Source: Bdellovibrionales bacterium
GTDB taxonomy: Bacteria; Bdellovibrionota; Bdellovibrionia; Bdellovibrionales; JAGQZY01
Length of the DNA stretch: 64,000 nucleotides
NCBI GenBank assembly: GCA_964230645.1
Contig: CAXRHT010000002.1
Coordinates: forward strand, 800,001-864,000
Direction of reading: 5' to 3'
The position numbers and the translations under genes are program-made. This document shows positions 25,519-59,475 of the stretch, in pieces. Numbering within the stretch: the first letter of the stretch is position 1; each line of letters starts with the position of its first letter. The notes beneath the pieces were generated by a model. The model made no database searches and was not told the origin of the DNA. It saw nothing but the letters and a program-made list of their open reading frames with translations.

Positions 25519-25700
25519 GCCCCTTGGTGACGAAACTTGGGCAGGAATTTAGGGAGCCTGGAGTGGAGGCTCGAGCAACGAGCGCTGCGTATCTCGGGTT
25601 GCAGCACGCAGTGATGCAATCCGAGAGACGAAGTGCACCCGGGTGCGTGCCTCCGCTCCAGGCTCCGTAAATTCCTGCCCAAGATTCGCCACCAAGGGGC
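25519..25700 (+). repeat. Hairpin element copy 1: 52-bp inverted arms plus conserved 78-nt core
   Basis: Arms 25519-25570 / 25649-25700 (48/52 Watson-Crick); core shared with 44737-44814 and 57813-57890. Confidence 0.92.
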
Positions 25701-39305: not shown

Positions 39306-39476
39306 GAACTTCGCTCGAACCACGATAGCCTATGCTTTCGGAATCAGTAAAAAATGAACCTCCTTAAAGCGGACGCGTTTTCGCCCAAAGGGCGAAATTA
39401 AGGTTAGGCAGGAGCCGCGGTTCATTTTTTACTGATTCCGAAAGCATAGGCTAACGAGGCCCTTCGAGCGAGCTTC
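39306..39476. repeat. Long hairpin element, second type (35-bp perfect arms, 58-nt structured core)
   Basis: 39326-39360 is the exact reverse complement of 39419-39453; outer TCGCTCGAA/TTCGAGCGA. Confidence 0.88.
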
Positions 39477-39494
39477 GACAGGTCCTTCGGCTTC

Positions 39495-39578
39495 GCCTCA
39501 GGACGACAAACGAGAGCCTCAAGATAACAAACGAGAGCCTTCGGACGTCAATTGGGAGCCTTAGAATGACAAATGAAA
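39495..39578 (+). repeat. Four degenerate 21-bp tandem units (GCCTYAGRAYGACAAAYGAGA-like)
   Basis: GCCT at 39495, 39516, 39537, 39558; ACAAACGAGAGCCT exact twice. Confidence 0.75.
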
Positions 39579-44004: not shown

Positions 44005-44319
44005 TTGAATAAAACAATGCAAAGTTTAATTCAAAGTAAAAAAGGGTTAACTCTTATAGTGTTGACCCTTTTTTTTGCTCTCTCCTACTTCTCAAATTAC
44101 AACTTGATCAGCCCCTATGAGATGAATTTCGATATCGCCACAATGCTCACTCCCTACGGCATTTCAAAGCATTATCTATTGCAAGACACTTACCTTACAA
44201 AATTCTTCGGAGAATCCACCCTGAGAGAGTCTGCCTTTAGCCGACTTTCATTCACGATAACTTTTGTTCTACTCCACCTTATGACGTGGACTCTGATCTT
44301 AAGGCTAAGAAAAAAATGA
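44005..44319 (+). CDS. Small membrane protein
   Basis: Two hydrophobic segments; overlaps the next gene. Confidence 0.55.
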   Translation: MNKTMQSLIQSKKGLTLIVLTLFFALSYFSNYNLISPYEMNFDIATMLTPYGISKHYLLQDTYLTKFFGESTLRESAFSRLSFTITFVLLHLMTWTLILRLRKK

Positions 44320-44672
44320 CCTGGGCCTCTTACTCCTATATTTTTCTACAATCAAACTTTTTAGAGATCCCCTTATACCTATATTTCTATCACCAATTCC
44401 TAAAAACCCGCTACAGCCTCACCGACCAAGTTTTACTAGTCACTCTCAGCAACCTCATCACTCATCCCATAGTCTTCTTCATAATAATGGCCCTTCCCTT
44501 TTCATTCTTAACAAATATCCTACTCGCTGAGTCCTTCGCAATATTAGGTGAATATCTCATCCACCGAAAACTCCTAAATCTCCCTAAAAAAACCGTTCTA
44601 AAAGCCTCAATCACCTCCAACCTATTCTCCTGGCAGCTAGCCCCCATCCTGACCTACGCGATATTCTACTAA
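44316..44672 (+). CDS. Membrane protein
   Basis: Hydrophobic; SNLITHP, AE.FA..GE, SNL.SW motifs; ATGA overlap. Confidence 0.65.
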   Translation: MTWASYSYIFLQSNFLEIPLYLYFYHQFLKTRYSLTDQVLLVTLSNLITHPIVFFIIMALPFSFLTNILLAESFAILGEYLIHRKLLNLPKKTVLKASITSNLFSWQLAPILTYAIFY

Positions 44673-44685
44673 ATGTACAAATCAA

Positions 44686-44865
44686 CCACCGCTAGTTCGT
44701 GGTTCGTAGAAATATTTAAAAGCTTGTGGTGTAGGTTCGAGCAACGAGCGCTGCGTATCTTGCAAGGTAGCACGCAGTGATACCTTGCGGGAGACGAAGT
44801 GCACCCGAGTGCGTGCCTGCACCACAAGCTTTTAAATATTTCTACGAACCACGAACTAGCGGTGG
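44686..44865 (+). repeat. Hairpin element copy 2: 51-bp inverted arms plus conserved 78-nt core
   Basis: Arms 44686-44736 / 44815-44865 (49 Watson-Crick plus 2 G-T). Confidence 0.92.
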
Positions 44866-44980
44866 CCCCGGCCTCAAAATTTTACAGGATACTGCATTTT
44901 CAGTTGTCAAAACTTTAGACAGCGTAATTTGTTAATTTCCCTTGAGAATTTAAAACCTTCGATCTGAGCTCGGTTCTTTT

Positions 44981-57757: not shown

Positions 57758-57945
57758 GCCCGGCGCTGGTCTCCAAGTGAATTCAGAAGTTCGTAAAGCT
57801 TCAAGAATAGGCTCGAGCGGCGAGCGCTGCGTATCTCGTGAAGCAGCACGCAGTGATGCTCCACGGGAGACGAAGTGCACCCGTCCGCGTGCCTAGGCTT
57901 GAGGCTTTACGAACTTCTGAATTCACTTGGAGACCAGCGCCGGGC
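57758..57945 (+). repeat. Hairpin element copy 3: 55-bp inverted arms plus conserved 78-nt core
   Basis: Arms 57758-57812 / 57891-57945 (52/55 Watson-Crick). Confidence 0.92.
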
Positions 57946-59373: not shown

Positions 59374-59475
59374 TTCTTTCTTTGCCAAAGGCAACCTCAC
59401 GGAAACTTGAGTTGCGCAAAGCTACAGGGACTAAGGTACTTCGGTGCTATGTCAGCCAGCTACCAAATGAAAGAA
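59374..59475 (+). ncRNA. Cyclic-di-GMP-I (GEMM-I) riboswitch aptamer
   Basis: GGCAA..GAAA loop..CGCAAAGC..CTAAGG..CAGCCAGCTACC; P1 TTCTTTCTTTG/CAAATGAAAGAA. Confidence 0.88.

Follow-up and report, generated by a model that had tools for sequence, protein, structure and literature searches.

Inspection of the window, the whole 64,000-nucleotide stretch of a Bdellovibrionales genome analysed here, had indicated three hairpins with related cores whose arms differ between copies and yet are complementary within each copy, and the second of these (copy 2) raises the question of how such arms are written. On the forward strand copy 2 consists of a 51-nt left arm (44686-44736), a conserved asymmetric core of 78 nt (44737-44814) and a 51-nt right arm (44815-44865), which is the reverse complement of the left arm save two G-T pairs. 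The pairing at all 51 positions that had been reported for these arms, including two G-T pairs, was reproduced with 49 Watson-Crick and two T-G pairs; as a control for this 51-bp arm, 20 shuffled windows had longest arms of 11-20 bp, and folding of copy 2 gave a z of -16.3 with equally stable folds in 0 of 200 shuffles. The arms of copy 2 have a GC content of 43%, equal to the genome average, with AT-richness confined to the middle of the arm, and the former description of copy 1 arms as GC-rich and copy 2 arms as AT-rich therefore holds for copy 1 (GC content 0.60) but not for copy 2.

The core of copy 2 is predicted to form a rod with internal loops and with G-T pairs on this strand, contains the conserved words GCGTATC (44753-44759) and GAGACG (44791-44796), and is closed by an apical GCA triloop of the G-N-A type (44774-44776). 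The left arm carries an AGCTT motif (44721-44725) that is in register throughout the family, and a C-rich tail (44866-44875) follows 3' of the right arm, as in most copies, and gives the element its polarity; the end of the element is approximate. An open reading frame of 128 amino acids without an NCBIfam match (44286-44672, forward strand) ends with its stop 13 nt before the left arm. A search of the whole window against Rfam at the gathering score returned no family for the hairpin, the only matches being to a tRNA and a c-di-GMP-I riboswitch elsewhere. The riboswitch aptamer lies at 59380-59467 (62.9 bits).

Copies of the hairpin in the genome

Regarding the other copies in the window, both likewise given on the forward strand, copy 1 (25519-25700; 52-bp arms, core 25571-25648) lies between divergent genes resembling those of a glycosyltransferase and a SAM decarboxylase, and copy 3 (57758-57945; 55-bp arms, core 57813-57890) lies upstream of the glycine-tRNA ligase gene. 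BLAST and profile searches of the 3.78-Mb genome (G000) detected 28 copies of this family (family A) on three contigs, comprising 26 plain copies, one divergent copy and one with a 43-nt insert. Arm length in the 28 copies ranges from 43 to 62 bp (median 51) and is not constant, as had been supposed. The arms pair at 1375 of 1443 positions, G-T pairs accounting for 24 of the 1443, and mismatches crowd the nine arm positions adjacent to the core, where 215 of 252 positions are paired compared with 1160 of 1191 beyond. Core identity averages 82.5%, and in the 26 aligned copies 97.1% of the cells pair, with changes on both sides in 42 of 60 pairs; none of 500 shuffles reached the real value and slid controls paired at 33-46%, a lenient control in that the structure was derived from the same sequences. 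Copy 2 (44762-44788) and the copy at G000:C2:497033 depart from the usual upper core stem by the same mirrored variant of several bases, their arms being only 36% identical.

Across the 28 copies the 12 nt after the right arm are 54% C and the stretch before the left arm is 48% A, and no copy (0/28) is flipped relative to its C-rich tail. The family motif is this tail and not AAATGTA: the AAATGTA upstream and the GCCCCG-like run downstream that had been noted for copies 2 and 3 are present there, but AAATGTA occurs at only 3 of the 28 copies. A rough ORF call placed eight copies in convergent, 15 in tandem and five in divergent gaps, mostly no more than 80 nt from a stop codon, and there is no preference of orientation, copies following a loop-strand gene in 14 cases and a gene of the opposite strand in 17. 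For 20 of 28 copies the loop strand is also the C-rich strand of replication (p 0.036 in a post hoc test). No common transposase, nuclease or other mobility gene and no HUH-motif match was detected among 359 flanking ORFs; the clusters among these ORFs, named by eye from sequence, are presumably housekeeping genes, and a GIY-YIG search yielded one 635-aa protein near one copy, which we take to be UvrC-like from its size.

Three sister families, B, B' and C (about 11, 4 and 9 copies), have the arm-core-arm plan and the polarity of family A, and in family C the arms of copies at nine loci are still 82% alike. One of the four B' copies of the genome is in the window (39320-39459, forward strand; 41-bp arms, 58-nt core) and adjoins a short REP-type palindrome of the TGTCRTCCTGAG family (39481-39508, reverse strand). 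This type of REP has 428 word matches genome-wide, occurs in doublets and tandem runs (for example C1:87901-88239) and flanks neither of the two RAYT-like genes of the genome. A palindromic insert of one kind, 40-43 nt long, was found in four cores, one of family A and three of family C (G000:C3:486890-487108, G000:C1:142820-142993, C1:733423-733596 and C3:591701-591874), with no direct duplication seen around it in these four copies, and a similar small insert was seen in the related genome G020 (L058). Among the relatives' loci, L120 appears to hold one element nested or in tandem within another, and at L117 and L118/L138 the two flanks derive from separate loci, which points to misassembly or to recombination between cores.

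Ancestry of the arms

Read outward from the core without gaps, arm positions 7-45 are 33.6% identical between copies compared with 25.6 ± 0.4% in 1000 shuffles, and the 26-copy alignment gives the arm consensus AAATT..GnAGCTTTT. The homology is in register over the inner 28 bp across copies; the outer positions hold almost no information across the 28 copies, which accordingly lack the conserved terminal inverted repeats of a MITE. In the three copies of the window, AGC and three more bases further out are identical in register, so that the common sequence is not restricted to the AGGY/GCCT at the core junction as had been stated. These data demonstrate that the arms descend from common ancestral arms.

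The best pair of arms is 56% identical, and arm distances do not track core distances (Mantel rho -0.03, p 0.66; 26 copies), a lack of congruence that agrees with arms close to saturation and a core under strong constraint. Comparison of the arms with the rest of the genome gave nothing beyond chance-level matches of 16-21 nt, the copy 2 arm had no significant phage match (best E = 1), the element had no significant plasmid match (best E = 0.5), and core patterns, both exact and looser, had no match in viral contigs. The earlier note had named gradual divergence of the arms, along a phylogeny congruent with that of the core and with no external matches, as the pattern that would speak against its proposals; the gradual divergence and the lack of external matches were indeed observed, but not the congruence.

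Homologues in related genomes and pace of arm change

Exact patterns made from the genome's own core had no match in GTDB, metagenome or viral contigs, and BLAST of the element in 60 relatives returned one chance-level match of 29 nt; homologues were reached by a covariance model and a looser pattern only. The covariance model gave matches in 8 of 25 genomes of the same family and in 4 of 6 genera, counts that are lower bounds, with about 124 candidates scored per genome. The pattern derived from the relatives' cores found 34 loci in 10 GTDB genomes, all titled Bdellovibrionales, Bdellovibrionaceae or Pseudobdellovibrionaceae, and 39 metagenome loci. Arms of at least 25 bp are present in 42 of 48 distinct copies of the relatives and pair at 2021 of 2054 positions, the six short or truncated copies being left out of this count. 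Since hairpins break short-read assemblies, copies are likely to be under-counted.

Orthologous loci were identified via common flanking genes. The site downstream of groEL is empty in the closest genomes, G004 and G005, and that downstream of rpsA is empty in G004; at 4-fold sites the two genes of G004 are 43-45% diverged from those of this genome, time enough for neutral change to nearly saturate the arms. Run X5, from a second study, represents a relative that is 2-10% diverged over the eight longest pieces listed; one of its contigs (depth 3) covers 44587-44817 with three differences, none of them listed in the first 50 nt of the left arm, and as this contig is single, of low depth and without the right arm of copy 2, it rules out only wholesale replacement of the arm. 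A contig of X4 (depth 4.9) skips copy 3, with 26 other letters in its place, and is probably the empty site of a relative too diverged to fix the ends of the element.

Regarding the pair G024 and G025, in which 4-fold sites of kup and rlmH are 30-39% diverged, the arms at the kup-rlmH locus, compared over 72 columns of which some 25 are REP, show 12 mirrored substitutions, one unmirrored substitution and two indels, those at a second locus show five mirrored substitutions, one unmirrored and two indels, including one of 6 nt, in 54 columns, and the cores have one difference in 88 sites and none in 91, respectively. The arms of this pair change at or below the neutral rate. Between G006 and G010, with 53% of dapB 4-fold sites diverged, the cores differ at 1 of 78 sites and the arms barely align. 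For the pairs measured it is established that arm change occurs in place and does not exceed the neutral rate, and neither the X5 relative nor the G024/G025 orthologues support wholesale, rapid rewriting.

Mirrored changes and probable arm-to-arm copying

In seven close pairs of copies, which remained of 11 aligned pairs after four had been set aside for excessive divergence, 43 of 50 differences have their mirror image on the opposite arm, 25 as transitions and 18 as transversions, and nine indel events all keep the pairing free of gaps. Neither mirrored transversions nor indels pass via a G-U intermediate, and both would therefore be better explained by copying than by stepwise RNA compensation. 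Against copying, the share of transitions among the mirrored changes is somewhat above that at 4-fold sites (transitions to transversions 25:18 compared with 44:66, p 0.048). The reads showed neither a half-converted arm nor an excision.

Host DNA is mirrored in the arms as well, all such cases coming from copies of relatives rather than from the 28 copies of this genome. The final 20 nt of dapB in G010 recur, perfectly mirrored, in the right arm, with five letters unlike G006 among them, and the DDFF codons are conserved in relatives free of the element. An arm of the G017 elements begins, in 4 of 6 copies, with the T-tract of a terminator-like hairpin that is mirrored in the other arm, and an empty site in G019 still has, as flank, the outermost part of the right arm of G025, for which deletion of a former element is another possible explanation. 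A check of empty sites in relatives for target-site duplication found an inverted, not a direct, copy of the flank. The core is inverted between the two members of both G024/G025 orthologous pairs, an arrangement that short-read assembly may fake; template switching is described as able to invert loops (PMC8794818).

Copying from arm to arm very probably accounts for the mirrored arm changes, and the suggestion of the earlier note that one arm is re-copied from the other thus gains support from the mirrored substitutions and indels at orthologous and close copies and from the mirrored host sequence. In the proposed mechanism a new mutation or small indel would be copied from one arm onto the other by template switching during replication, the arms would come to differ between copies and yet stay paired around the conserved 78-nt core, and the arm ends would mirror flanking host DNA, as they do in the relatives.

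Conservation and possible role of the core

On the same strand, G-T pairs outnumber A-C pairs by 24:9 in this genome and 18:4 elsewhere (42:13 together), and this excess, with the fixed G-T pairs of the core, suggests that the fold of one strand matters. The apical loop is of the G-N-A type in 25 of the 28 genome copies and in 28 of 48 distinct cores elsewhere, and six of seven G-N-N-A tetraloops in the relatives are not GNRA. Loops of the G-N-A type are reported to be unusually stable in DNA (PMC3201870, PMC13037366), and their presence, together with the lack of an orientation bias relative to genes, is consistent with a core that is read as a folded single-stranded DNA site. Such a site would be strand-specific and selected at each locus; purely selfish spread would leave the conservation of the core at fixed loci unexplained. 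A more far-reaching reading, possible but doubtful, sees in the core a folded single-stranded DNA site that has been domesticated and is host-selected per locus across the Bdellovibrionales, and that serves as an exchangeable module in self-correcting, flank-mirroring palindromes with or without REP ends.

The G-T bias also fits selection on an RNA fold, and the core could be a structured RNA with the arms as its processing or stabilising stem of RNase III type, in which case pairing would be kept by selection on the RNA. This is the least unlikely of the alternatives considered here and agrees with the one-strand bias, with conservation of the core in place, with the way the core covaries and keeps its G-T pairs, and with the location of most copies close to stop codons. 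It is nevertheless unlikely, given that copies occur in both orientations to genes and five of the 28 lie between divergent genes, that the loops are of a DNA type, that G-T pairs are so few in the arms, that 42% of the mirrored changes are transversions and indels and coding sequence are mirrored too, that the core is inverted between two orthologous pairs (unless by an effect of assembly), and that the Rfam search gave no match to the hairpin. A resemblance to the hammerhead or hairpin ribozyme was considered and dropped by eye.

Insertion sites, REPs and RAYT-like genes

Long-arm elements with any type of core were found behind groEL in 4 of 25 genomes, behind rpsA in 3 of 26 and behind dapB in 3 of 26, four of these loci being cut short or containing Ns. 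The sites are empty in most relatives, and different cores occur at the same site, which points to repeated insertion at favoured spots. In four genomes (L036, L043, L045 and L069) the element was seen in different gaps of one region that we take, with gene names assigned by eye, to run from rsmD to an aminotransferase gene, possibly an insertion hot region.

It may be asked whether the arms are written mainly at this step, an enzyme pasting the core and fold-back synthesis copying the target into an inverted arm that then stays fixed. The outer arm ends mirroring host sequence in G010, G017 and G025, the lack of congruence between arm and core trees and the unchanged left arm of copy 2 in the X5 strain would all be accommodated, but the inner 28 bp are homologous in register across copies, orthologous arms continue to change in place and the family C arms are 82% identical at nine loci, so that writing at insertion is improbable and ranks behind the RNA reading.

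Regarding REPs, the homologous core of G024 and G025 lies inside doublets of the REP that flanks the RAYT-like genes of G019 and G025, and other doublets of the same REP hold a different conserved core or none, which suggests that cores are modules. Loci L293-L310 (G019, G022, G024 and G025) are REP doublets with variable perfect arms and at least three different conserved cores or none, and at L302 one REP doublet is nested inside another. All nine family C copies of this genome adjoin a REP; a REP-like word is present within 200 nt of 2 of the 28 family A copies, and REPIN-type ends are absent. The two RAYT-like genes of the genome (NF047646, 65 and 71 bits, below the cut-off of 80) are flanked by GGTACC-type repeats, not by the hairpin element, and the core was found in none of 24 RAYT-like loci examined with flanks of 170-200 nt. 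The core occurs without REP or RAYT in one G025 copy and in G020 (71% complete, no Y1 match). Y1-like proteins of 150-160 aa in relatives (L152, L155, L156, L157, L168 and L170) have a small GC-rich hairpin motif upstream that is not one of the usual REPs, and this protein class had no tblastn match in this genome.

The conservation of the core could also be only apparent, if conversion within the genome or replacement from an active master copy, and not selection at each locus, kept the cores alike. Cores within a genome are often near-identical, G019 combines the same REP frame at kup-rlmH with another core, and further copies may hide in fragmented genomes; this explanation is nonetheless improbable and comes next in rank, because the second G024/G025 locus has a common variant core unlike the paralogues in the same genomes, and G006 and G010, with one model match each, differ at a single core site. 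Acquisition of the arms as foreign sequences in the manner of CRISPR spacers, which the earlier note had offered as its other explanation and to which the largely copy-specific arms of similar length would lend themselves, can be set aside as extremely improbable in view of the in-register arm homology, the lack of any significant match in genome, phage, plasmid or viral sequences and the gradual, mirrored divergence of the arms.

The reading preferred here, with a probability of about 0.6, is that the element is a dispersed intergenic palindrome with template-switched arms, a constrained single-stranded DNA core and RAYT-type spread. A HUH transposase of the RAYT type would, as with REPINs, act in trans to spread new copies, which would land mostly just behind stop codons and terminators; this is the weakest part of the explanation, and we infer it at about even odds.

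How pairing is kept up despite sequence change is described as an open question both for REPIN spacers (PMC3337134) and for RNA stems (PMC8794818). The hairpin family separates the parts of this question, with arms that change up to the neutral rate with mirroring and with host coding and terminator-like DNA mirrored into them, and this clean separation makes the rate and reach of arm-to-arm copying measurable from natural genomes; if the preferred reading is true, the family would be a natural recorder of this copying. That the core hardly varies at fixed loci hints at an undiscovered function or binding protein; were the more far-reaching reading of the core true, the family would form a new class among functional non-coding DNA elements, with a reader protein still to be found, and would record template switching over the long term.

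Comparison with known systems

ERIC/IRU, bcr1, YPAL and other MITE-like repeats are dispersed hairpins of 120-180 nt with conserved termini, and ERIC copies take small palindromic inserts. The 40-43 nt insert resembles those of ERIC; the termini of the present family, in contrast, are variable. Integron attC sites are structure-specific sites of folded single-stranded DNA, with variable sequence and conserved unpaired bases, whereas the hairpin copies stand singly among housekeeping genes and not in cassette arrays, and no integron integrase was detected above the cut-off (TIGR02249, best 68 bits compared with 265). Regarding retrons, the reverse transcriptase family PF00078 had no match in this 99.6% complete genome, and the tandem repeats and foreign-matching spacers of a CRISPR-like array were not found in the hairpin family.

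The dimers of GTAG/CGTC REPs resemble the family in having spacers of 20-100 bp, some with complementary ends or small stem-loops; no conserved inner core with long variable arms was seen in their description, and its main text does not mention Bdellovibrio (PMC3733652). Among the literature on REPIN/RAYT systems, Bdellovibrio REPs and palindromic repeats of Bdellovibrionota, no description of the family was found; the supplementary family tables of PMC3733652 could bear on its novelty.

Quasi-palindrome correction as described involves arm copying, multi-base mirrored changes, stem extension and loop inversion (PMC5941160, PMC8794818), and all four patterns are seen here. The accounts in these papers treat short perfect repeats or the stems of RNA genes (PMC5941160, PMC8794818), whereas the hairpin family has arms of 43-74 bp that are near saturation and a constrained core that is not perfected.

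The REPIN/RAYT system is similar in being extragenic, dispersed and patchy between relatives and in that the whole element forms a long hairpin. The variable arms keep the hairpin fold in the way reported for the REPIN spacer (PMC3337134; bioRxiv 10.1101/2021.07.10.451892), no two REPIN spacers being described as identical and all as forming a hairpin (PMC3337134). REPINs, as described, conserve the outer REPs and vary the spacer, whereas here the inner 78-nt asymmetric core is conserved; the hairpin copies number in tens and not in hundreds, with cores conserved at fixed loci, and the 28 copies of this genome have neither REP ends nor a flanking RAYT gene, REP ends being present in the G024/G025 copies with the homologous core. 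The hairpin family of this genome lacks the REP ends and the cognate RAYT of a REPIN, but it is real, and it is REPIN-like, with arms that are probably template-switched.
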